From assembly GCA_026396995.1 (NCBI GenBank), contig JAPLVS010000045.1:31519-95518 (forward strand): 64,000 nt of DNA. The letters run 5' to 3'. Shown piece after piece: positions 1,111-61,685 of the stretch (its first letter is position 1; each line of letters begins with the position of its first letter). The DNA is from Candidatus Iainarchaeum sp. (GTDB lineage Archaea; Iainarchaeota; Iainarchaeia; Iainarchaeales; DTGL01). The translations under genes and the position numbers were made by a program. The notes beneath the pieces were generated by a model. It had not been told where the DNA came from, searched no databases, and saw only the letters and a list, made by a program, of their open reading frames with translations.

Positions 1111-1890
1111 GTGTGTTTTTTTATGGGAAAAGTCGGTAAAAAGGCGGGTTTTTCTTTTTTGGTTTTTGCCCTCATTTTGTTGGGCATTGCGGTTTTTGCC
1201 GCCGTCCCCAAGTGTGCTGGGCAAACTGGTTTTGACAAGGATGACTGCATTGAGGCAAATGCCGTGACAGCGCAGGACTGCGCCGAGATTTTTTCAATTA
1301 GCCAGCAGGAAAATTGTATTTTAAGGGTGGCAAAGGAACCCAATGATTGCGAGTTAATTTCGAACGAAACAACCAAATGGCAGTGTGTCAAGGGCCTTTT
1401 TCCGGCTCTTGAATCTCTTGCAGACTGCACTAAGTTGCCCTCAAAGTATTTATCCAAATGTGAGGCGTTCGTAACTTTTCAGAACAATCCTGAGGACATT
1501 TCGGTCTGCTGGAAGTTGAAATATGATTCTCAGGAATACTGCGTTGAAGAATATGTGACGAACAGAAAAATTTCAGACCCGAATTTTTGCCTTGATGTCA
1601 AAGAGGATTTCCAAGCAAGATGTGCTTACCTTGCGACCTTGAACAAGTATGGCTTTGGCGCTGTCTTGGGCGAAACTGAAAAGGGCGCATGCGACACGTA
1701 CACAGGCAAAATCAAGGATGGCTGCGAGCAATATTTTGCTTTCAGCAGCGCTGCAAACGGAGCAATTGGCGGTTTTTTAACGGCAGGATTGATCTTCTTT
1801 GCGGCGATTGTCATTTTCGGGCTGGCGGCAATCGTAATAGTAATCTATGTTCTGACAAGGAAAAAAGGTCAACCTGAAAAGCCAAAATAA
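1111..1890 (+). CDS. Cys-rich repeat surface protein with C-terminal TM anchor (paralogue family with 14306..15202 and 60711..61436)
   Basis: N-terminal hydrophobic signal, repeated D-x3-C-x8-10-C-(Y/I) units (e.g. DPNFCLDVKEDFQARCAYLATL), C-terminal hydrophobic helix GLIFFAAIVIFGLAAIVIVIYVL followed by basic tail. Confidence 0.55.
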   Translation: MCFFMGKVGKKAGFSFLVFALILLGIAVFAAVPKCAGQTGFDKDDCIEANAVTAQDCAEIFSISQQENCILRVAKEPNDCELISNETTKWQCVKGLFPALESLADCTKLPSKYLSKCEAFVTFQNNPEDISVCWKLKYDSQEYCVEEYVTNRKISDPNFCLDVKEDFQARCAYLATLNKYGFGAVLGETEKGACDTYTGKIKDGCEQYFAFSSAANGAIGGFLTAGLIFFAAIVIFGLAAIVIVIYVLTRKKGQPEKPK

Positions 1891-1941
1891 ACCGATTTCG
1901 CTAAAGATTTAAATAAAAAGGCTTTTTGCCTTTCTTTTGGC

Positions 1942-2673
1942 ATGAAAATTGGTCTTTTGGCGCTTTTGCTTTTGCTTTTCCCTTTTTTCGCGGGCGCAGC
2001 ATATTATGCCGACATATCTGTTGATGTGGGTTCGGACGGCATTTCAACCCTTTCCGGCACCACAAACCATCCTGCGCTTGCTGCAGGGCAGAGCAGCGAG
2101 TTCACTTCCAAGGAAGGCAAGTACTGGCTTTTTTCCATTGACTTGAACGAGCAGTTTTCCGATTTTGTTTTTTCTGTGCTTTTGCCTGAGGGTGCATCAA
2201 TAAATTACGCCAAGGGCCCATCTGTCCGCATCGAGACAGAGAACGGCAGGATTGCTGTGAAAGGCGTCGGCAGCAACGGGCCTTTTTCCCTCAAAATACA
2301 GTATTCCCTTGAGGCGGACCAGAAAGAGCCCTTGATTCCATTGTGGGGTTATGTGCTGCTTTTGTTCGCGCTCTTTATTGCGGCAAGCTACCTGATTTTA
2401 AGGTACAAAAAGAAAAATTCTGAACCGATTGAAAAACCAAGGAAGAAAGGCTTGTCCGAAAAGGAAAAGGCTTCGCTCACAGAAAGGCAGCTTGCAATAA
2501 TCGGAATAGTTGAAAAAAACAAGGGCTTTGTTTCCCAGAAAAAAGTGGAAGAAGAATTGGGAATTCCCAAATCCTCGGTTTCAAGGAATGTGGAAGCGCT
2601 CGTGAAAAGAGGCTATTTGAAAAAGGAAGAGAAGGGCATGACCAACATGCTTTTCCTTGTAGAAACCAAGTAG
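1942..2673 (+). CDS. Membrane-spanning transcription regulator: extracytoplasmic domain - TM - C-terminal MarR-like winged HTH
   Basis: Signal/anchor MKIGLLALLLLLFPFFAGA, TM helix LWGYVLLLFALFIAASYLIL, then basic stretch and wHTH TERQLAIIGIVEKNKGFVSQKKVEEELGIPKSSVSRNVEALVKRGYL. Confidence 0.55.
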   Translation: MKIGLLALLLLLFPFFAGAAYYADISVDVGSDGISTLSGTTNHPALAAGQSSEFTSKEGKYWLFSIDLNEQFSDFVFSVLLPEGASINYAKGPSVRIETENGRIAVKGVGSNGPFSLKIQYSLEADQKEPLIPLWGYVLLLFALFIAASYLILRYKKKNSEPIEKPRKKGLSEKEKASLTERQLAIIGIVEKNKGFVSQKKVEEELGIPKSSVSRNVEALVKRGYLKKEEKGMTNMLFLVETK

Positions 2674-2773
2674 TTCTGGCTTGTTCCGCCTTGTTCCGCT
2701 GTTTTCCGCAAAAACCTAATTAAGCGTTCCGCCGCAATACTTCCAACAAACAAAAACCAAAGGAGGGCTGAAA

Positions 2774-3982
2774 ATGAAGAAACAATATTTTGTCCTTCTG
2801 CTTGTGCTGCTGGCGGCATTGATTTTGCCGGCAGTGTTTGCGGAAGACGAAAATGCAACGCCGGCGCCGACAGCAACGCCGGAAATTACGCCGACGCCTG
2901 AGGAAACGCCTGAACCGACCCCTTTCCCGGAAGGGATAGACCCTGAAACAGGCGAGCCTATAATGGACATGGAAACATCACTGGAAATAGAGTCCATGGG
3001 TTCAGGCATTGGGGCGCAGGTAAGGCTGCTTCAGTTGGAGAAATCCATTCTAAAGAGAGTCATTGCCGGCGAGCAAGCAATAGAATGGATAAAAGCAAAT
3101 AGGCCGGCAACCGATGTCAATAACCTTGAAGCTATCCTTGCTGAATTGAAGACTGTGAAGGACGAGGTCAAGGCCGAATATGATTCGGTCAAGGCAAACG
3201 GGGTTGACGGGAATACTGTAAAGGCTTTTGTCGACCTCAAAAATGACGCGAGGAGCCTTGTCAAGCAGTTCAGGGATGCTGGAAAGGACATCGTTGTGGA
3301 GCAAGGCTATAAGGAATTTATGAAAGCCCTGGAGGGGGATGCGGAAGTAGCGGCGCTTACTTCCGAAATCAAGGAAGCCGCACAGGAATTCAACGCCCAA
3401 AGGCTTGAGGAATTCTTTTCGAAACTGGAGGAAAGCCAGGCAGGCCTGATAGCCAAAGTCAGGAGCGGGGAAATCACCCTCAAAGAAGCCAAAGACCAGA
3501 TAAAGGAATTCCTTAAAGGGCTTGACTCCGCCCCGAAAGGAAAGGCATTCCAGTGGCTGAAAGAAGCCGGCGCAAAAAAGCGCGTTTTCGGGCAGGCCAA
3601 GGCACAGGAGGCAAAAAACCAGTTCCTTGAAAGGCGCGTAAACAGGCTCCAGGAAAGGATTGAAGACCTGAACAAAAATCCAAGAGTTGGCGAAGTTGCC
3701 CAAAACATAATGGACCGGGTAAAGGAACGCATTCAGGGCAGGATACATGATATGAACTTAGGTCCTCACGGGCAAAACCAGAGTCCCGGTGATTGGAATG
3801 CAGGCCAGAACGGCGGGCTTTGGGCTGAAGACATGAACCAGCCTGATGACCAGAACTGGCCTGATGGCCAGGGCGGGCAGCCGAACCAGAACGGCGGGCA
3901 TGGGTTGCAGGATAATCACTGGGACCAGAATGAGCCGCCTGACCAGAACAACGGCCACGACGGCGAGCCGGAGGGGTGGTGA
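2774..3982 (+). CDS. Secreted protein with Pro/Thr-rich linker, coiled-coil region and Q/N/G-rich C-terminus
   Basis: Signal peptide MKKQYFVLLLVLLAALILPAVFA; TPAPTATPEITPTPEETPEPTP linker; long helical Lys/Glu-rich core; C-terminal QN-rich low-complexity tail; RBS-like aaaggaggg upstream. Confidence 0.5.
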   Translation: MKKQYFVLLLVLLAALILPAVFAEDENATPAPTATPEITPTPEETPEPTPFPEGIDPETGEPIMDMETSLEIESMGSGIGAQVRLLQLEKSILKRVIAGEQAIEWIKANRPATDVNNLEAILAELKTVKDEVKAEYDSVKANGVDGNTVKAFVDLKNDARSLVKQFRDAGKDIVVEQGYKEFMKALEGDAEVAALTSEIKEAAQEFNAQRLEEFFSKLEESQAGLIAKVRSGEITLKEAKDQIKEFLKGLDSAPKGKAFQWLKEAGAKKRVFGQAKAQEAKNQFLERRVNRLQERIEDLNKNPRVGEVAQNIMDRVKERIQGRIHDMNLGPHGQNQSPGDWNAGQNGGLWAEDMNQPDDQNWPDGQGGQPNQNGGHGLQDNHWDQNEPPDQNNGHDGEPEGW

Positions 3983-13343: not shown

Positions 13344-13416
13344 GCCGGAGTGGCGCAACCGGTAGCGCGGCACACTCGTAATGTGCAGGTTGGGGGTTCG
13401 ATTCCCCCCTTCGGCT
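13344..13416 (+). tRNA. tRNA-Thr (anticodon CGT)
   Basis: GCCGGAG-TG-GCGC-AACCGGTA-GCGC-G-GCACA-CTCGTAA-TGTGC-AGGTT-GGGGG-TTCGATT-CCCCC-CTTCGGC-T cloverleaf, followed by a T-run terminator. Confidence 0.85.
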
Positions 13417-37249: not shown

Positions 37250-37322
37250 CGAGCCCGGAGGGATTCGAACCCTCGACCTACTGCTTAGAAGGCAGCCGCG
37301 CTATCCACTGCGCTACGGGCCC
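37250..37322 (-). tRNA. tRNA-Arg (anticodon TCT)
   Basis: GGGCCCG-TA-GCGC-AGTGGATA-GCGC-G-GCTGC-CTTCTAA-GCAGT-AGGTC-GAGGG-TTCGAAT-CCCTC-CGGGCTC-G cloverleaf. Confidence 0.85.
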
Positions 37323-44463: not shown

Positions 44464-44835
44464 TCACGCGATTCTTATCTGGGCCATGTTCACTTTCCTG
44501 AAGGTCAGCGAAACCGGGCCGGCTGCGACAGCGTCCTTGAGGGTGCCGTGCACAGGGCCTGTCCCGTTGCCCCTAACTATAATGGACAAATCCCAAAGGA
44601 AGCCGTCAGTCAAAGCGTGGATTTTCCCGCTCATTGAGCCGATCTCGTAAGACCTGCCGGTCATATCCCTTTGCAGGCTGCAGGTTTTGCCTATCACCGA
44701 AATCGCGAAATTCTTTATGCTGCCCGAAGCCTCTACCGGCACAAACAGCCTGATGTCCTTTTCGGTCATTACTTTCTGCACTGCCTGCATTACGTTCTCG
44801 TTGTCGTTGACTTTAACCTCTACCAACTCTTGCAT
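44464..44835 (-). CDS. Hypothetical protein
   Basis: ORF; start trimmed to MQELVEV; no confident motif. Confidence 0.35.
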   Translation of the reverse strand: MQELVEVKVNDNENVMQAVQKVMTEKDIRLFVPVEASGSIKNFAISVIGKTCSLQRDMTGRSYEIGSMSGKIHALTDGFLWDLSIIVRGNGTGPVHGTLKDAVAAGPVSLTFRKVNMAQIRIA

Positions 44836-44893
44836 TGCTCTATCACCCCAAGAAGACAATTGAAAAAACGAATATAACAAAGGGAAAGAATCA

Positions 44894-45070
44894 TTTAAAA
44901 CCTTTTGCAGGGCTGTTTTCAGCCTGCCTGAACGCCAAGACAAATCAATGGCTTAAAACTTTGCGCAGGCTGTTTTCGCCATGCCAGAATCCGCCAAGGC
45001 AAATCAACGGTTTAAAACCTTTTGGAAGCCGATTCGGGCTTTCCCGAACGTTCCCGCAAGTGCTTTAAAA
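44894..45070. repeat. Three imperfect ~58-bp tandem repeats immediately upstream of the A2M-like gene
   Basis: Units begin ttaaaac(c)ttt...gctgttttc.gcc.tgcc.gaa..gccaag.caaatcaa.gg; copies 1-2 ~80% identical, copy 3 more diverged; each carries a TATA-like tttaaaa. Confidence 0.6.
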
Positions 45071-45088
45071 ACCCCAGCGTTATATTGA

Positions 45089-48000
45089 TTGGGTGATTCT
45101 ATGAAAAAAACGCTTTCGTTACTGGTATTTTTGGCAATAATTTTGGTTCCCGCAACCGCAGCTGCAATGATGCAGACTGGAACGGCTGCAGCCGTACCTG
45201 TTGCAAACACAGGCGTGCAGGCCGAGGAAGGGAAAGGCGGAGTGGCCCCTGACTATTACAACCGCTATTTTTACATCAGCATAAGCGACAAGTTCATGCT
45301 CGGCGACAAGGTCGAAGCGCAGTTGTGCGGTTCAGGCCTTGCGACAGTTGAACTCTACAGGTTCGAGGACTTTTCAGCAATCTTCGACAGGTACAATTAC
45401 GGCATGAATGACACAAGCGATTTCATGAAAGGCGAAAAGCCCTTCAAAACCCTCACTGTACAGCTTGGAAACGGCCAGGACTGCCAGAAAGCGGATTTGC
45501 AGATAGAACAGGCAGGATTGTATTTCATAAAAGGCTATTCAACCGAATCGGACCAAAAGCCCACAGCGTTTTTTTCAGTCGAAGAAATCGCCTTCATGGC
45601 AAAAGAATCACCTGAAAAAATAGTATTCTATGCGGTTGATATCAAGACAGGAAAGCCGATTTCAGGCGCGGAAATAAAACTGCTCCAGCAGAAAACACCC
45701 ACGACACCGGAACAAAAGCCGGAAGCAACAGAAACAAGCCTTGGCTTCACCAATGATTTGGGATTATTCGAATGGCAGCAGGAAAAGCCTGCTTCAACAG
45801 ATTATTACCAGAGGCTCTTCATTGCAAAAAAAGACAATTCTTTCGCATATGTGCAAAGCTATTATTATGGCGGGGAAAGCGCCGAAAGGAAACAGGTTTA
45901 CCTTTTCACTGACCGCCCTATTTACAGGCCGAACCAGGAAGTGCACTTCAAGGGCATAGTCTGGGAAACAAGCACAGGCAAAAATGCCGCAGTTGCAAGC
46001 AAAACGCTTTCGGTTACGATAAGGGATTCGAAATGGAACGAGGTATTCAAGTCAGATTTTACAACCAATGAATTCGGCTCATTCGAAGGCTCTTTCAATC
46101 TCGCGGACGAGCCGCCTCTCGGGCAGTATTATATTGACGCAGCAATAAGCAAACCAGGGGAAGCCGAAGCCGGCTATTATTCAACCTCGGCTTCTTTCCA
46201 GGTGCAGGAATACCTGAAGCCTGAATTTGAAGTGACAGTGAACCCTTCCAAGGATGTTTTCATAGGCGGGGAAAAGGCGCGCGTCGAGATAAAGGCGGAA
46301 TACTTGTTCAAGGCGCCTGTGCAGGATGCGAAAGTGATGTACAGGGTTTATTCCTCATACTACCAGAGCCCGTGCTACGGCTACTGGAAATGCGTTTACT
46401 ACGACGAAGTGGCGGTTTCGCCTTACTCTTCTTACAGGTCTTACCCGTATTATGGCGGGCAAGAGCTTGTGACCGAAGGGGAAACAACCACTGACAGCGA
46501 GGGCAAGGCATTCCTAGAATTCGACACGAATGCAGACAGGGAAAAGCGCTACCAGATTGAAGCGACTGTTGTTGATGAAAGCAACCGCGAAGTGAAAGGC
46601 ACAGGCCAAATCACTGTTGCACCAGCAATGTTCAGGCTCACTGTAATGCCTGACAAGTGGTGGTACGCTGAAAACGAGGAGGTTGTGCTGAAAATCACAG
46701 CCGCAGACTTCGAGGGCGCAGCAGCGGAAACAAGCGCAACAGTGAAGGTTTTCTCGCTTAACTGGAACAGCACTTCAAGCGATTACGAACACACCCTGGT
46801 GAAAGAGGAAACAGCAAGCACAAGCGAAGGGAAAGCCGAAATAAGGCTCTCGCTCCCAACCGGAAATTATGCGGTGGAAGCATCAGCGCAGGATTCGAAA
46901 GGAAACACCGTGAAAGCCGAGAATTCATTCAGCGTCAGCTCTTATGAAAGCGAAAGCAAGGTGAAAGAAATAGAGGCAGCGCTTGACCGCGATTTCTATC
47001 TCCCAGGCGAACAGGCTGTGCTCACAATAACAATGCCTGAACCAGGATTCTACGCATTGATTTCGGTGGAAGGCAGGGGCATGTACCAGTACGAGGCGGT
47101 GTATTCTGCAGAAAACAGGCTTTCATACATCATTCCGGTTTCCACAGACTATGAGCCTAACGCCTTTGTTTCTGTGACAGGCGTGCAGGGCGGAAAGGTC
47201 TTCAACAAACAGCTTTCATTGAACGTGCCGCCGAAGGAAAAGAAAATAGATTTGAGCATCGAAACAGACGCGGAATATTACAGGCCAGGCGACAAGGCGC
47301 ACTATATAGTCAAAGCAACATCCGACGGCCAGCCTGTGGAAGCGGAATTCGCAGTAATGCTCGTTGATGAGGCAATCTACCAGCTCGCACAGGACAACAA
47401 GGAAGATATCTTCAAATTCTTCTTTGCGCCGGAATACAACAGAGTGAATACCCAGTGGAGCATAGGCGGGTATTATGGAGGCTATTACGGCATTAATGAA
47501 ATGGCTAAGGGCGGCGGAGGGGCCGTGCCAATGGCCACACCGACAACCCAAGCTGACAACGCAGCAAGGGACGGCGGAACAGCGTATGCCGCCGCAGAAA
47601 TAAGAAAGACCTTTTCTGACACGGCATTCTGGAAGGCATTCCTGAAAACGGATTCCACGGGAACTGCGGAATTCGATGTGGATTTGCCTGACAACCTCAC
47701 AACCTGGCGCGCTACAGTGATTGCGAATTCCGAAACAAAGGCAGGCGCACAGGAAGGCAAAATTGCAGTGACAAAAGATTTGCTTGCAAGGCTTATCCTT
47801 CCAAGGTTTGCTGTGAAAGGCGACGAATTTACTGTCACTGCAATCGTGCACAACAGTTTGCCTGAAATGAAAAACGTCCTGGTGAAAATCGAATCTGACA
47901 ACCTTGAATTCCCGGACGGGAACACAATAGAAATTACTGTTGCAAGCGGGAAAAGCGAAAAAGCTGAATTCAAGGCAATAGCGAAAAAATGCTGCTCTGC

Positions 48001-50989
48001 AACAATAAAACTGGAAGCGCTGACAGATGTCGAATCTGACGCGCTCGAAATAATAATGCCGGTATTCCCCTGGGGCATAAAGGAATTCGAGACGGTTTCA
48101 GGGGAAATAAGCGGTGCAACAAAAGAAATAACGATAGAGATTCCTGAGGAAACAGACAGGGAAGCCGACAAGCTGATAATAAAATTGAGCCCTACACTCG
48201 CGGCATCTGTTGTCGATTCATTGGATTACCTTACAGGCTACCCTTACGGCTGCGTCGAACAGACAATGTCAAAGTTTTTGCCTGACGTAGTTGTTTCGGA
48301 AACATTGGGCGAATTGAACCTTGACAACGAAAAAATTTCAAAGGATTTGCCTGACATGGTCGACAAGGGGCTGCAAAGGCTTTATTCTTTCCAGCACGCG
48401 GACGGCGGCTGGGGCTGGTGGGAAAACGATGAATCACAGCCTTTCATGACCGCTTACGCGATGTACGGCCTCACGCTGGCAAAAAAAGCAGGATTTAACG
48501 TAGAGGAAAGCGTGATTGAAAAAGGCCTCCAGGCAATGAGGGACAAATTCCATTCGGCAGGCACAAAAGGCTATGCCGACGAATACGATTCGCAGGCAGA
48601 AAAAGACTTGGAAGTGCAGGCATTCATGTCCTATGTGCTTTACCTCAACGGCGACAGCAAATTCGTGGGAGAGATTGAGGGCAAGGCAGGCGAAATGAGC
48701 GATTACGGCCTTGCGCTTCTCGCGCTCCAGGCAGAATCGAAAGAAGAGGCGCAGCCTTTCCTTGACTCGCTCGGCAAGAATGCAGCCTGCGACGCAACAT
48801 TCTGCTCCTGGCAGGGCAAAAGCTGGAGGCACTATTGGAGCGAAAGGGACATGGAGTCAACAGCGATGGTGCTGAAGGCGTTCGTGAAATGGCAGCCTGA
48901 AAGCGAACAGGCAAGGAAGGCAGTCGCATGGCTCATGAGCCAAAAGCAGTACAACCACTGGAATTCAACGCAGGACACTGCGACCGCAATAATGGCAATA
49001 ACAGATTACCTGAAATATTCAGGGGAATTGGACCCTGACTTCACAGCCAAAGTATACATAAACAACGAACTCAAAAAGGAATTCTCTGTCACAAAAGAAA
49101 ACCTGATGAGCACAGACGGAGACCTGACAATAGAGGTTCCGGAAAAGCAGAGCAACATCAGGATTGAAATGACAGGAAAAGGAAAGCTCTATTATTCGAT
49201 AACAAAAGAATACTTCGCGAAACAGGAAAAAATCGAAGCGAAAAGCAACGGCATCAAAATCACAAGGGAAGTGAAAAATGCCCTTGACATAGGCGAAGAG
49301 GCAACAGTGAAACTGACAATAGATGCGGACAAGGAATACGACTATGTCATTGTGGAGGACTTCCTGCCTGCCGGCGTTTCAATCGTTGATACCTGGCAGC
49401 GCAACACCTACGGGCACTATTACTGGGACTGGATGCCGTACTGGTATTCGAGGCTTGAAGCGCGCGACGAAAAGGCAGTGTTTTTCTTCGACAGCCTGCA
49501 GCAAGGCAAAACCGAACTCGAATACACGATAAGGGGCGAGGTTTCAGGCGCATTCAGGCACCTGCCTGCGCAGGCCTATTCCATGTACAATCCTGAAATC
49601 AACGGCCATTCTGAAGGAGGCAATTTCACTGTCACAACAGAAAAATCTTTCTCGCTGCCGAAACTCGAAGTGCACGACGACTACATATGGATTTACCCGA
49701 GACCGATTCCGATGGGTGCTGAAGTCAAGGCAACAGTCCTTGATGCTTCAGGCAAAGCCGTTGCATCGGCTTCAGGCCAGGCAAGCGAAGGAAAAATAGC
49801 GATTCCTTTGTCCGCAGGCCTCGCAAACGGAACCTATTCTGTCAGCGTTTCAACAGGGAGCGGAACTGCCACAAAGGACTTCCAGGTCGGCACTGTGGAA
49901 ATAAAGAAAGCAGAGCTTGCCTCGGCAACCTACACAAACGATCTCCTGGAAAGGACTGCACAGTCAGCATTCTCAAATCCCGCACAGGCAATGTGCACCT
50001 CGACAGGCGGCTCATGGAACGGCCGGTGCTCGTGCCCTTCAGGCTCGTACTGGCTTTTCGGCATAGGATGCCTTGCAAAAGGCGCCGGCATCGGGGGAAC
50101 GGCAGTTGAAAGCCTTTACCTTATTGCCTGCGCATTCCTATACTCCTTGCAGCCGATTTTCATCAAGGCGGCGCTCCCTTTTCTGACCCAATTCCAGATG
50201 TACGCTTTCCGCTGCGTTGGAACCCTGTTTGTGTTCCTTCCGCTCGCATTCCATTACAGGGAAAAGGTGCGCTCCGAGCTCAGGCAGTGGAAAAAATTCA
50301 TTGTTCCAGTAATAACAATCACCGGGGCAATGATGCTGTTTGTGGCAGGGATTTATCTTGCGGAAAACGCGACAGTCATGGCCCTGATAGCAAAATCCAA
50401 CCTTGTGTTCACGGCAATCCTGACAGTAATATTCTTTGCAGAGGAAAGGAGGGTGCTTTCCTCCAAAAGATTCATTGCCGGCGTCCTTTTGGCTTCAATC
50501 GGGGTAATCGGGGTCATCACGGCAGGGAAAGACTTGCCGCTCACATTCGGGATTGGCGCAATACTCATCCTGGTATCGCAGGTCTTCTGGAGCGCTTACT
50601 CGGTTTCACTGAAAGGATTGATAAAAAACAACAGCAGGCTTGAGGCATTGTGCGTGATTGTGCCGATGGCATTCCTTGTATCCGTGCCGTTTGCAGGCTA
50701 TGAAATCGCTGCCACAAACCCGCAAATAAACCCAATCTTTCTCCTGATACCGGTTGCAGCAGGAATGGCGCTCGGCCTTGCAAATATCTTTGAATTCAAG
50801 TCAATAGAAACCAAGGGCCTGATGATAACATACGCTTTCACGCTTATCAACCCGCTCCTCACAGGCTTAATCGCCTTCTTCATATTTCAGGAAACAATAT
50901 CAATCGCGCAGGCGGCCTTTGCTGCAGTCCTGATTGCAGGCGCACTGCTGATACTTAAATGCGAATGCATCGAAACCGAGGGCGACTGA
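45089..50989 (+). CDS. Alpha-2-macroglobulin-family thioester-containing protein fused to C-terminal EamA/DMT-type 10-TM transporter-like domain (1966 aa)
   Basis: Signal peptide MKKTLSLLVFLAIILVPATAAA; thioester motif LTGYPYGCVEQTMSKFLPD at nt ~48251..48262, followed by the W-rich block HADGGWGWWEND; beta-rich N-terminal 1000 aa consistent with MG domains; residues ~1680..1966 form ~10 TM helices in two EamA-like halves. Confidence 0.8.
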   Translation: MGDSMKKTLSLLVFLAIILVPATAAAMMQTGTAAAVPVANTGVQAEEGKGGVAPDYYNRYFYISISDKFMLGDKVEAQLCGSGLATVELYRFEDFSAIFDRYNYGMNDTSDFMKGEKPFKTLTVQLGNGQDCQKADLQIEQAGLYFIKGYSTESDQKPTAFFSVEEIAFMAKESPEKIVFYAVDIKTGKPISGAEIKLLQQKTPTTPEQKPEATETSLGFTNDLGLFEWQQEKPASTDYYQRLFIAKKDNSFAYVQSYYYGGESAERKQVYLFTDRPIYRPNQEVHFKGIVWETSTGKNAAVASKTLSVTIRDSKWNEVFKSDFTTNEFGSFEGSFNLADEPPLGQYYIDAAISKPGEAEAGYYSTSASFQVQEYLKPEFEVTVNPSKDVFIGGEKARVEIKAEYLFKAPVQDAKVMYRVYSSYYQSPCYGYWKCVYYDEVAVSPYSSYRSYPYYGGQELVTEGETTTDSEGKAFLEFDTNADREKRYQIEATVVDESNREVKGTGQITVAPAMFRLTVMPDKWWYAENEEVVLKITAADFEGAAAETSATVKVFSLNWNSTSSDYEHTLVKEETASTSEGKAEIRLSLPTGNYAVEASAQDSKGNTVKAENSFSVSSYESESKVKEIEAALDRDFYLPGEQAVLTITMPEPGFYALISVEGRGMYQYEAVYSAENRLSYIIPVSTDYEPNAFVSVTGVQGGKVFNKQLSLNVPPKEKKIDLSIETDAEYYRPGDKAHYIVKATSDGQPVEAEFAVMLVDEAIYQLAQDNKEDIFKFFFAPEYNRVNTQWSIGGYYGGYYGINEMAKGGGGAVPMATPTTQADNAARDGGTAYAAAEIRKTFSDTAFWKAFLKTDSTGTAEFDVDLPDNLTTWRATVIANSETKAGAQEGKIAVTKDLLARLILPRFAVKGDEFTVTAIVHNSLPEMKNVLVKIESDNLEFPDGNTIEITVASGKSEKAEFKAIAKKCCSATIKLEALTDVESDALEIIMPVFPWGIKEFETVSGEISGATKEITIEIPEETDREADKLIIKLSPTLAASVVDSLDYLTGYPYGCVEQTMSKFLPDVVVSETLGELNLDNEKISKDLPDMVDKGLQRLYSFQHADGGWGWWENDESQPFMTAYAMYGLTLAKKAGFNVEESVIEKGLQAMRDKFHSAGTKGYADEYDSQAEKDLEVQAFMSYVLYLNGDSKFVGEIEGKAGEMSDYGLALLALQAESKEEAQPFLDSLGKNAACDATFCSWQGKSWRHYWSERDMESTAMVLKAFVKWQPESEQARKAVAWLMSQKQYNHWNSTQDTATAIMAITDYLKYSGELDPDFTAKVYINNELKKEFSVTKENLMSTDGDLTIEVPEKQSNIRIEMTGKGKLYYSITKEYFAKQEKIEAKSNGIKITREVKNALDIGEEATVKLTIDADKEYDYVIVEDFLPAGVSIVDTWQRNTYGHYYWDWMPYWYSRLEARDEKAVFFFDSLQQGKTELEYTIRGEVSGAFRHLPAQAYSMYNPEINGHSEGGNFTVTTEKSFSLPKLEVHDDYIWIYPRPIPMGAEVKATVLDASGKAVASASGQASEGKIAIPLSAGLANGTYSVSVSTGSGTATKDFQVGTVEIKKAELASATYTNDLLERTAQSAFSNPAQAMCTSTGGSWNGRCSCPSGSYWLFGIGCLAKGAGIGGTAVESLYLIACAFLYSLQPIFIKAALPFLTQFQMYAFRCVGTLFVFLPLAFHYREKVRSELRQWKKFIVPVITITGAMMLFVAGIYLAENATVMALIAKSNLVFTAILTVIFFAEERRVLSSKRFIAGVLLASIGVIGVITAGKDLPLTFGIGAILILVSQVFWSAYSVSLKGLIKNNSRLEALCVIVPMAFLVSVPFAGYEIAATNPQINPIFLLIPVAAGMALGLANIFEFKSIETKGLMITYAFTLINPLLTGLIAFFIFQETISIAQAAFAAVLIAGALLILKCECIETEGD

Positions 50990-51058: not shown

Positions 51059-51445
51059 ATGAACAGGGCAAGGAACACAGTGCAATTGCAGAAAATCCGC
51101 GAATACCTCTCCGGGGTAAAATCGCACCCGAATGCGGAAACAGTGTTCAATGCCGTGAAGAAAGGAATCCCTTCGGTGACGCTTGCAACAGTTTACAGGA
51201 ACCTCAACAAGCTCGCGGACAGCGGGGAAATACTGCGCCTGGAAGTGAACGGCGAATATCGGTTCGATGCAGACAAAAGCATGCACCAGCACGCGGTTTG
51301 CACCGAATGCGGCGGCATCCTCGACTTTATGGATGTGAAACTAGGCGAAGAGATGCTGAAAAAATTCAAGTCAAAGGAATTCATGGCAGAAAAAGTGAAG
51401 ATTTTCTACGAGGGGAAATGCAGGAAATGCAGTTCAAAAAAATAG
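51059..51445 (+). CDS. Fur-family metalloregulator (PerR/Zur-like)
   Basis: wHTH N-terminus, HQHAVCTECGG and C-terminal CRKC metal sites. Confidence 0.8.
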   Translation: MNRARNTVQLQKIREYLSGVKSHPNAETVFNAVKKGIPSVTLATVYRNLNKLADSGEILRLEVNGEYRFDADKSMHQHAVCTECGGILDFMDVKLGEEMLKKFKSKEFMAEKVKIFYEGKCRKCSSKK

Positions 51446-51457
51446 GGGGTTGTTTTT

Positions 51458-51982
51458 ATGGAAGCGAAATTGTGGGTTTGTGAAATTTGCGGCGACCCGT
51501 ACATAGGCTATGCGCCGCCGACAGCTTGCCCTTTCTGCGGGGCGAGAGGCCGCTATATCAAGGAATTCAGGGACGCAAAGGTTGAATTTGATGTGAAACT
51601 CAACGAAAAGGACAGGGCGAATGCCGAGCACGCGCTCCAGGTCGAAGTCAGCAATTCCACGTTTTATTTCTGCGCTGCCGAAAAGACGCCTGATGCGGAA
51701 GCAAAAAAATTGTTCAAGGCATTGGGGAAAGTCGAGGCAGAGCACGCAGTGATCTGGAAAAAACTGCTCAAATTGAAGGAAATCCCGAAAGGCACAGATG
51801 AATGCGCCGAAAATTACATGAAAAATTTGCAGGACTCACACGCAAGGGAAACCCGCGCAATAGAATTTTACCGCAGCGCGGCAAAGGAAGCCGCGAATGC
51901 GCGCGTTAAGCAGGTTTTCGAGGCTTTGGTCGAAGTGGAAACAGACCACCTGCAGCTGTCTGAAGCGAGGGGAGCCAAATGA
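51458..51982 (+). CDS. Rubrerythrin with N-terminal rubredoxin-like domain (reverse rubrerythrin)
   Basis: N-terminal CEICG...CPFCG rubredoxin-like Cys4, then ferritin-like ExxH diiron helices (AEHALQ, EAEHAVI, ETDHLQ). Confidence 0.85.
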   Translation: MEAKLWVCEICGDPYIGYAPPTACPFCGARGRYIKEFRDAKVEFDVKLNEKDRANAEHALQVEVSNSTFYFCAAEKTPDAEAKKLFKALGKVEAEHAVIWKKLLKLKEIPKGTDECAENYMKNLQDSHARETRAIEFYRSAAKEAANARVKQVFEALVEVETDHLQLSEARGAK

Positions 51983-53095: not shown

Positions 53096-53273
53096 CGCCG
53101 AGAGAGGGATTCGAACCCCCGCATGCTTGCGCATACCAGCTCTTTGGCCAGCTGCAGAGAAGTGACTGATATATTAATCAAACTTTTTCTTTTCTTTCCG
53201 CAACTCCCTGTTCAAGCTTGGCTTGAACAGGAGGATTCCAGACTGGCGCGTTAGACCGCTCCGCCATCTCGGC
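53096..53273 (-). tRNA. tRNA-Ser (anticodon GGA) interrupted by ~94-nt intron
   Basis: 5' exon GCCGAGATGGCGGAGCGGTCTAACGCGCCAGTCTGGAA (~53236..53273), 3' exon AGCTGG-TATGCGCAAGCATGC-GGGGGTTCGAATCCCTC-TCTCGGC-G (~53096..53141); acceptor stems fully complementary; Ser-type long D loop and variable hairpin; intron contains perfect 11-bp-stem hairpin cctgttcaagc-caa-gcttgaacagg. Confidence 0.7.
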
Positions 53274-56690: not shown

Positions 56691-58025
56691 ATGCATAAAA
56701 AACTCCTGGCTGCAGCGCTGCTGTTGCTGTCCTTTTCCTGCGCTTTCGGTTGCACAAGCATCGGGCTGCACCCTAACCTGACAGAAAAAGACGGCAAGAT
56801 TTTCGGCTCGGTGCTTGTAGAGTGCGACTGGAACGCCCTTGCAGGGGTAAAGGTGGCGGTCACAGTGCCCAGCGGCGAAACCCAAACTCTTGTCACCTCT
56901 GAAACAGGCGACATTTACATTGAGGGAGGCGAAAAGGGCGCATACTTTTTCTCAGTGGAAGTTGCAGAAGGGAACAGCAACGAGGCAAAGGTCGTGCTCC
57001 GCGGGAAAGCCGGAATCACTGTCATCAGGGACGAAAACACTTATTTTGTCTGCGGCGAAGCGAACCAGGTTGAAATAATCGACAACGGAACGCTCTACAT
57101 TGTGCCGGCCAAAGGGGGCTGCGGAACCTACACAACCAAAAGCGATTCGTTTACAGTGCGCGCAGGCGGAACAGAAAAAAAGGCAGGAAAAATGCTGTTC
57201 ATCGAGGCTCCTGCCGAGGCAATTGCAGGAACCCAGTTTACAGTGAGGGTGCTTGACAACTCGAGGCCTGTTGCAGGCGCAACAGCAAAAATCCTGGAAA
57301 CCGAAAAAACAACAGATGCCTTGGGCTTGGCTGTTTTTTCTGTTGAAAAAGCCGGCAGCTTCGAAATCAGCGCAGAACTCGGAGGCATGGCTGCTGAAAA
57401 GAAAACAATAACAGTTCTCGAAAAAAAGAAAGAATTCGATGTGTCGTTCCCGGAAGAGGTTTTCCCTGGGGAAGTTTTCATTGTGAATGTTTCATGTGCT
57501 GGAGAGCCGGTGCAGGGCGCTGTTGTGGAATTCAGGAAGCAGTCAAAGCCAACCAACAGTGAAGGGGATGCTTTCTTTTCGGCTCAGGCAAAAGGAGCTT
57601 TTGAGGTTTTCGTGCAAAAGGAAAACTTTGAGCAGTTCAGTTCAACAGTCGAATGTGTTGCGCTTGAACAACCGGCGCTTGAACTCATGTTCCCATCTGA
57701 AATAACCGAAGGCGATGCATTGGAAGCGCTTGTGCTGTCAGGCGGGGAGCCGGTAGAGGGCGCAAAAGTGTCTTTCAACGGCCTGGAAAAAGAAACAGAC
57801 AGTTCAGGAAAAGCCGTCTTCATTGCACCGCAGGCAGGCAGCTACAATGTGGTTGCGCAAAAGGAAGGGTTTGCCTCTGGTGAAAAAACAGCCAGTGTGA
57901 ACAAGCCGGCTTCAGAGCCGCTGACCAATGAAGCGATACTGTTCCTTTCACTGCTTGTCTTTGTGTTTTTCATCTGCCTTGGCGGGGCAATACATTTTTT
58001 CAGGAAATGGAGGAGTTTAAGGTGA
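56691..58025 (+). CDS. Surface lipoprotein-like protein with Ig-like/carboxypeptidase-regulatory-like repeats and C-terminal TM anchor
   Basis: Signal with lipobox-like SFSCAFGC; repeated beta-rich ~80-aa units; C-terminal hydrophobic helix + RKWRSLR. Confidence 0.5.
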   Translation: MHKKLLAAALLLLSFSCAFGCTSIGLHPNLTEKDGKIFGSVLVECDWNALAGVKVAVTVPSGETQTLVTSETGDIYIEGGEKGAYFFSVEVAEGNSNEAKVVLRGKAGITVIRDENTYFVCGEANQVEIIDNGTLYIVPAKGGCGTYTTKSDSFTVRAGGTEKKAGKMLFIEAPAEAIAGTQFTVRVLDNSRPVAGATAKILETEKTTDALGLAVFSVEKAGSFEISAELGGMAAEKKTITVLEKKKEFDVSFPEEVFPGEVFIVNVSCAGEPVQGAVVEFRKQSKPTNSEGDAFFSAQAKGAFEVFVQKENFEQFSSTVECVALEQPALELMFPSEITEGDALEALVLSGGEPVEGAKVSFNGLEKETDSSGKAVFIAPQAGSYNVVAQKEGFASGEKTASVNKPASEPLTNEAILFLSLLVFVFFICLGGAIHFFRKWRSLR

Positions 58026-60085
58026 AAAAGAAAGCGCTGGCACTGGCATTTTTCCTGCTCCTTGCAGGCAGCATTGTTTGGGCTGCGGAAAAAGATGTCA
58101 TACTCCAGATAAACGGCGAGGATGCGGACATAGACGCGAACGCAGTCGAGGTGATTGGGCCAGGCGAATTCCATCTCACAGGCATGGTTAAAAACAACCT
58201 CCTGGCAGAGGACACCCATAAGAACCTGGATTTGGTTTTCATTCTCGACGCAAGCGGCAGCATGCAGGGCGAAATCGACGCTGTGAGGGACTCAATCAAT
58301 GAAATAATCGCTTACGTGAACACGGAATGCCCGGGATGCATGAGGGTCAGCATTTACGTGTTCGAAGCCATCCCGGCAAGTACTGGAGGCGGAGGAACGC
58401 CGCCGCCATGCCACGGGAAAGCCTGCCTGGAACCCAGTTCACCGGAAACAGAAAACACAGAAACCGCTTATTTCGGCTGTTTTTCCAAGAAAGGCTATTG
58501 TGCCGGCGACAATGACAAGGGCCTAATCCCCTTCACCACAAACGCCGACACATTAAAAGAATGCCTTGCCTTGGTTGTGGCAAACGGCTCTGTGGAGCCA
58601 TGGGCAAGGCTCACCTACGAAATACTCAACGACAACAGCTTCGGCTGGAGAAGTGACGCAGTAAAAGCCATGGTTGTGATTACAGATGAGCCGGCAGACC
58701 CATGCAGCTCATGTGATAAAGCCAGCTGCCACAGCCATTACTGCTCCCAGGCGGCAAACACGCTTCTAAGCAAGGACGCCTATTTTTTCGGGATTTACGG
58801 CATATACGGTGGCGCCCCAGGAGTCGACTTGGACATGCAGAAAATCCTTGATGCAGGCGTCAAGGGTGACATGTATTCTTATGACAACACCAGCGAAATA
58901 AAGGAAAAAATCCTGCAGGCAATAGGGACGATTATCGGAAGCGACGACTTTGTGGTGACAAAGGAGCTTGGCCCTGACTGGGAAAGCAACATTGGCGCGA
59001 CCGGCTTTTCAGTGCCGCAGGTCGTAAGGCGCGACCCGAACTGGAGGGAATTCCAGATAGACCTGAAAACCCCGGACACATACGACCAGGATTTCGCCAT
59101 GTTCGAGTACAAGATTGCGATGGTCGACGACCCTTCAAAGTACGATGTCGCCTGGCTGAAAGTGATAATGGGGGAGAACAAGCTGCCGACAGTTTCGCTT
59201 TCACACGAACCTGAAGAGCCGTTGCCGGGGGAAGAAGTTGTTTTCACTGCAGACGCCTTGGATGAGGACGGGACGATTGTGGCATACAGGTGGAATTTCG
59301 GCGACGGTGAAACAAAGGAATGCGCTGACTGCGCCGTCGTTTCCCACACTTATGCCGCAAAGGGCGAATACCTTGTTTCGGTCGAAGTCGAGGACGACCG
59401 CGGCGGAAAAGCAGCTGCTACTGAAAACCTGAAAATAAAGAACAGGCCGCCTAACAAGCCTGTAGTGACAATAAGTCCCACAAGCGGCTTTGCCCCGCTT
59501 GAAACAACAATGAACGCAACCGCCACAGACCCCGACAATGACCCAATCGTGCAATGGCAATGGGATTATGACGATTACACCCCGATGGACACATGCGACT
59601 GCAGTTCAAGAAACCATACTTATACAAGCGACGGAAGTTTCAGCGCAATGGCGAGGGCGTCCGACGGCGAAGACTGGTCTGAATGGAGCGACCCGATTGT
59701 GACAGTTTCAATCAAGAATGTGCTGACAGCTTTCAGGGTGCAGGACACGAATGTCGGGAAGAAGACATTAATGCTTGTTTCATGCACTGACCAAACTCTG
59801 ACCGCTCTTGTGGAAATAATGGACTCCGAGGGCACGCTTTTGAAAACCGTAGAGCGCGAATGCAACGGGCTTTGGTCCGAACCGGATTATGTTTTTGGCG
59901 AAAGCGGGATTTACATGGCAAGGGCTTCCATTAAGGGCAAACAATGCTCGAACTGCCCTAAAACAATATACTTCCGCGCAATCGCGCCCTTCCCTGAAAT
60001 TAAAACGCCTGATGCAAGCCCGCTCTCGGCAGCCGCAGTTCTTGCAGCAGTGCTTATCCTGACAGGAAGGAAAAAGAAAAAATAA
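58007..60085 (+). CDS. Surface protein with vWA (MIDAS) domain, PKD domains and C-terminal TM anchor
   Basis: Signal peptide; LDLVFILDASGSMQGEIDAV MIDAS; PKD-like WNFGDGE...HTY; C-terminal PLSAAAVLAAVLILTGRKKKK. Confidence 0.7.
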   Translation: MEEFKVKKKALALAFFLLLAGSIVWAAEKDVILQINGEDADIDANAVEVIGPGEFHLTGMVKNNLLAEDTHKNLDLVFILDASGSMQGEIDAVRDSINEIIAYVNTECPGCMRVSIYVFEAIPASTGGGGTPPPCHGKACLEPSSPETENTETAYFGCFSKKGYCAGDNDKGLIPFTTNADTLKECLALVVANGSVEPWARLTYEILNDNSFGWRSDAVKAMVVITDEPADPCSSCDKASCHSHYCSQAANTLLSKDAYFFGIYGIYGGAPGVDLDMQKILDAGVKGDMYSYDNTSEIKEKILQAIGTIIGSDDFVVTKELGPDWESNIGATGFSVPQVVRRDPNWREFQIDLKTPDTYDQDFAMFEYKIAMVDDPSKYDVAWLKVIMGENKLPTVSLSHEPEEPLPGEEVVFTADALDEDGTIVAYRWNFGDGETKECADCAVVSHTYAAKGEYLVSVEVEDDRGGKAAATENLKIKNRPPNKPVVTISPTSGFAPLETTMNATATDPDNDPIVQWQWDYDDYTPMDTCDCSSRNHTYTSDGSFSAMARASDGEDWSEWSDPIVTVSIKNVLTAFRVQDTNVGKKTLMLVSCTDQTLTALVEIMDSEGTLLKTVERECNGLWSEPDYVFGESGIYMARASIKGKQCSNCPKTIYFRAIAPFPEIKTPDASPLSAAAVLAAVLILTGRKKKK

Positions 60086-60087
60086 GG

Positions 60088-60657
60088 CTATTTTTTTGGG
60101 AAAGCCAAAAACTCCTTTTTAGCCTTCAAAAAAAGCTTCGTCCCTGTTTCTGTCTTTAATTCCCTTTCTGTTTTCCTGAAAAAATCGCCCATGTCCGCAT
60201 TCACGCGGCCTTTTTTCTGGTAGTATAAGACCTGCAGGCACATTTCAACCATGTCCAAATCCTTCACAAAAACAGATTCCTTCGAACGCTGTTCAAGGAA
60301 TTCCAATGCAAGCGAATCAAGCACTTTCCTTTTCCCCACAGGCGCAAATTTAGAAAATTCTCTTATCGCTTTTTCCTCGGCTTTTTTCTTTTCGGCATTC
60401 GTCATTTCCTGCTCGTGCTCGAATTCGCGCGAGCAGATGTCGCCGCAGACAGTTTCGTGCAAATCGTGGGCGAGAGCAAGGCGGACGCATTTCAATTCGT
60501 CAAGGCCCTCTTCTTTTGCATAAAGGCTGCAGAGCAGTGCAAGGACAAAAGAATGGTCGGCAACGCTCTCCGGCTTTTTCACTTTCCTCACAAGCCAGCC
60601 TGTGCGCTCGATGTCTTTCAGTTCGAGCGCCTTGAGGGCGAATTCAATAAAAGCCAT
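60088..60657 (-). CDS. HD-domain phosphohydrolase
   Basis: H...HD...H...D metal ligands (VADHSF, LAHDLHE, D near C-terminus). Confidence 0.75.
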   Translation of the reverse strand: MAFIEFALKALELKDIERTGWLVRKVKKPESVADHSFVLALLCSLYAKEEGLDELKCVRLALAHDLHETVCGDICSREFEHEQEMTNAEKKKAEEKAIREFSKFAPVGKRKVLDSLALEFLEQRSKESVFVKDLDMVEMCLQVLYYQKKGRVNADMGDFFRKTERELKTETGTKLFLKAKKEFLAFPKK

Positions 60658-61512: not shown

Positions 61513-61685
61513 CGCCGAGAGAGGGATTTGAACCCCCGCATGCCAGAGGCATACCAGCTTACTCGCCGCAATATTTTGCTTTTGCCATGAGGTCTTTTCT
61601 TTTTGGCAAACCTAGGCTTTTTCTTTTATAAAAAGAAAAAGGCTGGGCTCAAGGCTGGCGCGTTAGACCACTCCGCCATCTCGGC
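61513..61685 (-). tRNA. tRNA-Ser (anticodon TGA) interrupted by ~89-nt intron
   Basis: 5' exon GCCGAGATGGCGGAGTGGTCTAACGCGCCAGCCTTGAG (~61648..61685), 3' exon A-GCTGG-TATGCCTCTGGCATGC-GGGGGTTCAAATCCCTC-TCTCGGC-G (~61513..61558); anticodon stem CCAGC/GCTGG; intron carries the aaagaaaag palindromic element. Confidence 0.7.

Follow-up and report, generated by a model that had tools for sequence, protein, structure and literature searches.

We found a single open reading frame (ORF) that joins a bacterial-type alpha-2-macroglobulin (A2M; residues 1–1670) to a complete 10-helix EamA/DMT (drug/metabolite transporter) domain (residues 1671–1962). It lies in a 64,000-nucleotide (nt) stretch of contig JAPLVS010000045.1 from Candidatus Iainarchaeum sp. 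(assembly GCA_026396995.1); this whole stretch is called the window below. All six close relatives of the A2M part (P0001–P0005 and L026) are unfused: in each, the A2M closes with one transmembrane (TM) helix and a Lys-rich tail before its stop codon. The explanation that we favor, with modest confidence, is a real and recent in-frame fusion private to this lineage, in which the A2M would still be tethered and the transporter would likely be crippled.

The ORF occupies 45089..50989 (+), and inspection of the reading frames of the window revealed no stop or frameshift inside it; the sequence-only reading, which had seen none at the domain junction, was right on this point. The probable start is the ATG at 45101, not the mechanically assigned TTG at 45089, giving a product of 1962 amino acids (aa). 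This ATG is favored because it aligns with the start codons of the orthologues in the protein alignment and is preceded by a Shine-Dalgarno-like GGTGAT site and a conserved promoter-like TTTAAAAA box (45063..45097 (+), with the box at 45063–45071 and the GGTGAT at 45092–45097); the TTG is probably not used. Both elements are motifs only, and as such they recur 5′ of A2M in L001, L004 and L002. The product from 45101 exactly matches NCBI MCX6802225.1, a “MG2 domain-containing protein” from the 102,797-bp contig of a “Candidatus Diapherotrites archaeon” metagenome-assembled genome (MAG), and NCBI annotates the fused ORF as an intact coding sequence. Hydropathy, the orthologue starts and MCX6802225.1 agree on a predicted Sec-type signal peptide, MKKTLSLLVFLAIILVPATAAAMM, encoded with the ATG at 45101..45175 (+). 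Its KK n-region is followed by hydrophobic residues 5–23 (peak Kyte-Doolittle hydropathy 2.47), in accord with the secretory signal first read from the letters; it has no lipobox Cys, nor any cysteine at all.

The fusion junction is at 50108..50113 (+), between Glu1670 (GAA, 50108–50110), the last A2M-derived codon, and Ser1671 (AGC, 50111–50113), approximately the fifth EamA codon. Blastn similarity to L001, the locus in the related MAG GCA_043809265.1 (84% over 5.1 kb), ends exactly at window position 50110, and by DNA alignment the window is short of ~199 nt relative to L001. The absent segment comprises the end of A2M (anchor helix, K-rich tail and stop codon), a 35-nt spacer with a TATA-like box, and the beginning of EamA (its ATG and first four codons). 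In L001 coordinates EamA is read in frame +1 with respect to A2M, and therefore a loss of 199 nt yields an in-frame fusion. The edges of the deletion in L001 have just ~4 nt in common, and so few shared bases fit an illegitimate or microhomology-mediated deletion. GC content is even across the junction.

The five closest A2M homologues, P0001–P0005, are 86, 64, 63, 61 and 46% identical (1655–1721 aa, ~85% query coverage) and have no EamA Pfam domain. In each, a Cys motif and a short linker lead into one hydrophobic helix, and the chain closes with a tail rich in Lys and Arg; this C-terminus is predicted to act as a type-I membrane anchor that leaves the A2M on the outside. L026, a JGI fragment, is closer still (93% identity over residues 1086–1481) and has the normal anchor, tail and stop. 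Its A2M fragment is called as two ORFs (25–1215 and 1252–1953), and a sequencing error or frameshift probably explains the break between them, near residue 1481. A separate EamA gene begins 35 nt past the A2M stop in L001 and 40 nt past it in L004 (GCA_038736825.1). In L002 a 32-aa ORF and an OTCase gene come between A2M and EamA, which is ~1.35 kb downstream, while in L021 (Ga0190313_1005150, 1880–3740) HIT(−) and PCC(−) are followed directly by a stand-alone EamA, and A2M is absent. As judged from this gene order, the A2M gene is an apparently optional insert at the locus, dispensable in at least one relative.

Stand-alone EamA proteins begin MDKG, MDRG, MEKG or MNNG, followed by S/N-L/M-Y, and in four of their genes (L001, L002, L004 and L021) a TTAAAAA(G) box lies 22–30 nt 5′ of the ATG. 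By comparison with these four, the TTAAAAA box, the ATG and the first four EamA codons are not in the window. Because box and ATG are gone, the EamA part would be made only as a fusion. No AT-rich TATA-like element was found in the ~400 nt 5′ of the junction. Two internal starts were considered for EamA and rejected: the sole in-frame ATG that keeps helix 1 (49991) is inside the Cys motif, and the next one (~50197) would remove helix 1.

The A2M part had been assigned to its family from the letters alone, and Pfam bears this out. MG2, MG3, A2M_BRD, A2M, TED_complement and bMG10 each score above their gathering thresholds and stand in canonical order, followed by EamA. All are on the + strand: MG2 and MG3 at 45893..46330 (residues 265–368, PF01835, 95.4 bits, and 370–410, PF17791, 26.7 bits), the A2M bait-region domain A2M_BRD at 46976..47386 (residues 626–762, PF07703, 65.1 bits), the A2M family domain at 47621..47887 (residues 841–929, PF00207, 72.5 bits), the best-matching stretch of the thioester domain (TED) at 48209..48541 (residues 1037–1147, PF07678, 83.4 bits), and bMG10, the bacterial A2M MG10 domain, at 49193..49597 (residues 1365–1499, PF17973, 92.6 bits). 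The intact thioester box and W-rich block described earlier are indeed present: the box PYGCVEQTMSKFLP contains GCVEQ with thioester Cys1051 (48251–48262), and the block HADGGWGWWEND is at residues 1099–1110 (48395–48430). The thioester motif is CVEQ or CIEQ across P0001–P0005, and the HADGGWGWWEND block is likewise conserved in relatives. With this domain order and an intact CxEQ, the protein is a member of the alpha-2-macroglobulin/thioester-containing protein family. Sequence matches in the PDB span residues 564–1429 and comprise TEP1, human A2M, CD109, C4, ECAM/YfhM and Salmonella A2M.

Past bMG10 the protein has one more domain, an Ig-like beta-sandwich “stalk” at 49721..49882 (+) (residues 1541–1594), with weak similarity to Por_Secre_tail and FlgD_ig. 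Its Pfam scores are below cut-off (23.8 and 21.4 bits, respectively, each against a cut-off of 27), its score against the NCBIfam Por_Secre_tail model TIGR04183 is borderline (23.2 bits, cut-off 23), and the region is kept in the alignment of relatives. Beyond this borderline match, the NCBIfam scan gave just a sub-threshold and uninformative match to SCO2321. A juxtamembrane four-Cys motif follows at 49994..50071 (+) (residues 1632–1657), reading C-x11-C-x-C-x11-C in the window and with a first spacer of x12 in five relatives. Its invariant residues in six sequences are C, GG, W, C, C-P, W, G, G and C, and it may form a small disulfide-knotted stalk module. The Gly/Trp-rich pattern C-x3-GG-x-W-x3/4-C-x-CP-x4-W-x2-G-x-GC, invariant in six Iainarchaeota A2Ms (alignment columns 246–273), is without Pfam match.

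The 10-TM EamA/DMT domain and the stop codon occupy 50111..50989 (+) (residues 1671–1962), with neither start codon nor TATA-like box of their own. Pfam matched EamA (PF00892) in two stretches (58.4 bits, cut-off 28.2; best stretch 1818–1952), and the AlphaFold2 model of the C-terminal 293 aa has 10 long helices (pLDDT 91.7, pTM 0.88). Foldseek aligned this model to the DMT structures 5i20, 7paf, 9i20, 5y78 and 6xbo with probability 1.0 and TM-scores of 0.65–0.81, and its fold matches include LicB (7paf), SLC35B1, TPT and CST. The model thus agrees with the EamA-like C-terminus proposed earlier and places it in the EamA/DMT superfamily, with two predicted EamA repeats in a 10-TM DMT fold. A sequence search of the PDB with the EamA part gave a chance capsid match as its sole match.

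We looked for accelerated decay of the fused EamA among invariant columns and unique changes, and detected none. Of the 81 columns without variation among four stand-alone orthologues it keeps 73 (90%; leave-one-out controls 81–95%), and with 19–21 unique changes its branch is no longer than the one leading to its stand-alone sister (25–34). The A2M part is under purifying selection, with a ratio of nonsynonymous to synonymous substitution rates (dN/dS) of 0.13 vs. L001, an average over the whole divergence from L001. The intact EamA together with this selection on A2M fits a very recent fusion, and retained function is equally compatible.

The two parts are predicted to have conflicting membrane topologies. 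The positive-inside rule predicts a cytoplasmic N-terminus for EamA. When K+R were counted in the N-terminus, loops 2/4/6/8 and the C-terminus vs. loops 1/3/5/7/9, the ratio was 16:1 in the fused EamA and 18:2, 20:1 and 21:1 in three stand-alone orthologues. In 10-TM DMT proteins both termini are reported to be cytoplasmic, and in DMT structures helix 1 borders the substrate site (PMC6508934). The stretch 1632–1657 would be extracytoplasmic because of its disulfide-type four-Cys motif, and this motif together with the signal peptide places the A2M part outside the cell. EamA helix 1 begins 13 residues past the last ectodomain cysteine, at the position of the lost single-pass anchor. From the Cys motif up to EamA helix 1 the hydropathy profile shows no TM helix, and an extra helix correcting the topology was rejected for that reason. 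An exported A2M joined to an N-in EamA, with no reconciling helix, would make the join topologically frustrated; native EamA topology in the fusion is predicted to be unreachable without displacing a helix. Transport by the fused EamA is probably impaired, because helix 1, displaced or inverted, lines the substrate site.

The fusion appears once in the data searched. PF00892 was in none of the 120 A2M homologues listed from the database search, consistent with the earlier remark that such an architecture is not known from described A2Ms. A phmmer search with EamA against 1.84 billion representatives gave 311 matches, the best 150 of which are all 63–411 aa long and include no A2M-EamA fusion. 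Searching with the junction plus EamA returned two stand-alone or partial EamA proteins and no second fusion. The exact junction 30-mer had 0 matches in genome and metagenome DNA collections; the source contig is outside these collections, so the result means just that they hold no second copy. A search of archaeal genomes for the same fusion had been suggested in the sequence-only reading, and none of the relatives, protein matches listed or 30-mer scans supplied one. The fusion is in one MAG, and A2M-DMT is not a recurrent, conserved multidomain (Rosetta-stone) architecture.

In the sequence of events that we favor, the ancestor would have had a Sec-exported, bacterial-type thioester A2M held at the surface by one TM helix at its C-terminus, with a cytoplasmic tail rich in Lys, and next to it a separate gene for a 295-aa EamA/DMT protein with its own TATA-like box and ATG. 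Deletion or illegitimate recombination would then have taken out ~199 nt, joining A2M and EamA in frame. The A2M ectodomain would still be exported, as a possible bait-and-thioester protease trap at the cell surface, and EamA-derived helices would now tether it: either helix 1 would insert N-out with the rest frustrated, or helix 1 would be excluded and helix 2 would be the anchor. The C-terminal membrane anchor proposed earlier survives in this weak form, with helix 1 at the place of the lost single-pass anchor.

The identities of the neighboring genes bear on how the junction arose. To GCA_043809265.1 and GCA_038736825.1, respectively, the window has amino acid identities of 86 and 63% for A2M, 78 and 59% for Fur, 88 and 71% for rubrerythrin, 89 and 81% for ArgG, and 51 and 54–68% for EamA; the four flanking genes are nearer GCA_043809265.1, and EamA alone is nearer GCA_038736825.1. 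Synonymous divergence (dS) from L001 is 0.67 for A2M and saturated for EamA. The EamA of GCA_043809265.1 is itself 79% identical to that of L002. EamA appears to be a hot spot of allele replacement that ends on its left side at the fusion junction, and the fusion may stem from a recombination event in EamA that was imprecise at its left end; either lineage is a possible recipient.

Several points weigh against a recent, private fusion of this kind. It is a single observation from one MAG, with a junction known from the assembly alone; the topology argument is the positive-inside rule and not an experiment; the EamA part, being without decay, suits a very recent event and retained function equally; and the EamA allele replacement around the junction could have gone in either direction and at any time.

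Among the alternatives, the one that survives best, though we think it unlikely, is that the join is an artefact of sequencing or assembly, or a deletion carried by a minority of a population whose dominant genome has two separate genes. This would account for the fusion being a singleton and its product topologically implausible, and the drop to 51% identity at EamA, between flanking genes of 78–89% identity to GCA_043809265.1, is in keeping with it. So is the heterogeneity concentrated at EamA, the gene inside which the assemblies of both related MAGs break (L001 6115–6542 and L025 1–457; L004 15162–15351 and L022 1–641); these breaks suggest that strains in those communities differ there. 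However, the ~4 nt shared at the deletion edges in L001 provide no repeat of k-mer length over which an assembler could collapse 199 nt, and the uniform GC content, the precise in-frame join and the intact NCBI coding sequence also speak against this explanation. Both flanks belong to the same lineage, being 84–85% identical at the nucleotide level to one MAG, GCA_043809265.1, with synteny on each side kept as in relatives. A large-scale chimeric contig is ruled out, given that the flanks match this same MAG and that all four flanking genes rank it above GCA_038736825.1.

More doubtful still is a fusion that is real but inactivating, with misfolding or degradation of the product, loss of both A2M and EamA functions, and early pseudogenisation in a reduced DPANN genome. 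The clash between the exported ectodomain and the N-in helix 1 lends itself to this explanation, since inversion would put 16 positive charges on the “wrong” side, as do the loss of the EamA promoter box and start codon and the dispensability of A2M at the locus in L021. Yet the 1962 codons hold no stops, frameshifts or excess substitutions, and the dN/dS of the A2M part is 0.13, although that value averages over the divergence from L001. Membrane proteins with one displaced helix, moreover, frequently still insert.

An adaptive bifunctional protein, in which the DMT either transports or serves as a dedicated polytopic anchor, and is coupled to protease trapping, is improbable: A2M and EamA do adjoin in several relatives, the EamA part is intact with a confident fold and its family-invariant residues, and the spacing from ectodomain to first helix resembles that of the native anchor, but the adjacency is optional (EamA without A2M in L021, OTCase between them in L002), the nearest relatives (86 and 93% identity) are unfused, neither the A2M matches listed nor the best 150 of 311 EamA matches contain a second fusion, and the N-in topology is at odds with the join. 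The idea in the sequence-only reading of an architecture coupling trapping to export is likewise unsupported, as the fusion is confined to one MAG and its relatives have a stop, a promoter-like box and a separate EamA start. We give as little credence to a real and functional protein, fixed in this lineage, whose thioester trap would have swapped its single-pass anchor for a still-inserting polytopic DMT module, with helix 1 serving as an N-out anchor beside a 9-helix remnant, or with an inverted DMT using the internal pseudo-symmetry of the fold.

We examined the neighborhood of the fused gene. To its left is a PCC-domain gene at 44464..44943 (−) (PF03479), shared with L002, L004, L021 and L023, and to its right are genes for a Fur-family regulator and rubrerythrin at 51059..51982 (+) (51059–51445 and 51458–51982; assigned by Pfam), in the same order found 3′ of EamA in L022 and L025. 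The ~5.5 kb upstream encode a histone deacetylase, a cation-efflux protein, an AAA_14/DUF4143 ATPase, the PCC-domain protein and two ORFs without Pfam match, and the ~4.3 kb downstream encode Fur, rubrerythrin, CDGSH and ArgG. By Pfam, these ~5.5 kb and ~4.3 kb include no pbpC-like, transglycosylase or transpeptidase gene. Between PCC and A2M, L001 has an extra ~715 bp (135–850) with a 202-aa ORF lacking a Pfam match, not in the window (44905–45037). Genes for CarboxypepD_reg-like, VWA/PKD-like surface and HD-domain proteins lie 3′ of EamA in L002 (17754–21978), and ORFs of like size and order are at 56691–60657 of the window, farther from EamA, with Fur, rubrerythrin, CDGSH and ArgG/ArgH between; this displaced gene set suggests a local rearrangement between lineages. 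An Rfam scan of the window found five tRNAs and nothing at the A2M-EamA locus. Two of the tRNAs, at 53096–53273 (−) and 61513–61685 (−), span 173–178 nt and contain introns, as is typical of archaea; they support the archaeal (DPANN) origin that had been read from the sequence. The other three, at 962–1036, 13344–13416 and 37250–37322, are without introns.

The A2M part resembles ECAM/YfhM and Salmonella SaA2M (PDB 4ziq, 5a42, 4rtd, 4u48) in its length (~1650 aa), in its MG domains, bait region, CxEQ TED and bacterial MG10, and in extracytoplasmic membrane tethering, though the distance from these solved bacterial A2Ms is large (phmmer E ~1e-20). Unlike the ECAM/YfhM type, it has no N-terminal lipobox and no pbpC-like (PBP1C) neighbor, belongs to an archaeal host, is tethered C-terminally (by a TM helix in relatives, by EamA helices here), and has the extra Ig-like stalk and the four-Cys juxtamembrane motif. 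The “MG2 domain-containing proteins” P0001–P0005 and L026 are far nearer (46–93% identity), with the same locus (PCC upstream), domain order, CVEQ/CIEQ, stalk and Cys motif; the window protein differs from them in continuing into EamA, with the ~199 nt missing. Outside the Iainarchaeota clade, the nearest named A2M relatives among the matches listed are bacterial, such as Bacteroidota and Bryobacteraceae, at ~30% identity over the whole protein, and loci of Armatimonadota reach 38–40% over the C-terminal region; these bacterial relatives are consistent with horizontal gene transfer. Archaeal homologues with a signal peptide, TED and intact CxEQ, some of bacterial origin by such transfer, have been described (Makarova et al., 2021; PMC8416519). 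They come from Halobacteria, Methanomicrobia and others, and the passages of that study that describe them mention no DMT fusion. The same passages count CxEQ A2M/TED proteins in 24 archaeal genomes, so that the rarity of A2M in archaea asserted earlier was overstated. The EamA part shares its two EamA repeats, 10-helix fold, loop charges and invariant residues with stand-alone DMT transporters (YddG, 5i20; LicB, 7paf; orthologues P0122, L002 and L021), and differs from them in lacking its own start and promoter box and in having 1670 exported residues on an N-terminus expected to be cytoplasmic.

The fusion reveals no new mechanism of defense or transport, and a singleton in one MAG is unsuited for inferring a functional link between A2M and DMT. 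If the recent fusion that we favor is correct, it would be a dated and mechanistically transparent birth of a fused gene in a reduced DPANN genome, through a deletion of ~199 nt, and a natural experiment in topology frustration. Were the fused protein instead fixed and functional, it would be a new membrane-protein architecture, possibly with topology inversion, caught arising from a 200-bp deletion. The unfused relatives have a meaning of their own: Iainarchaeota carry bacterial-type, thioester-intact A2Ms that are predicted to be tethered by a C-terminal helix and not by a lipid anchor, and such helix-tethered A2Ms bear on how episymbiotic archaea may shield their surface from proteases.

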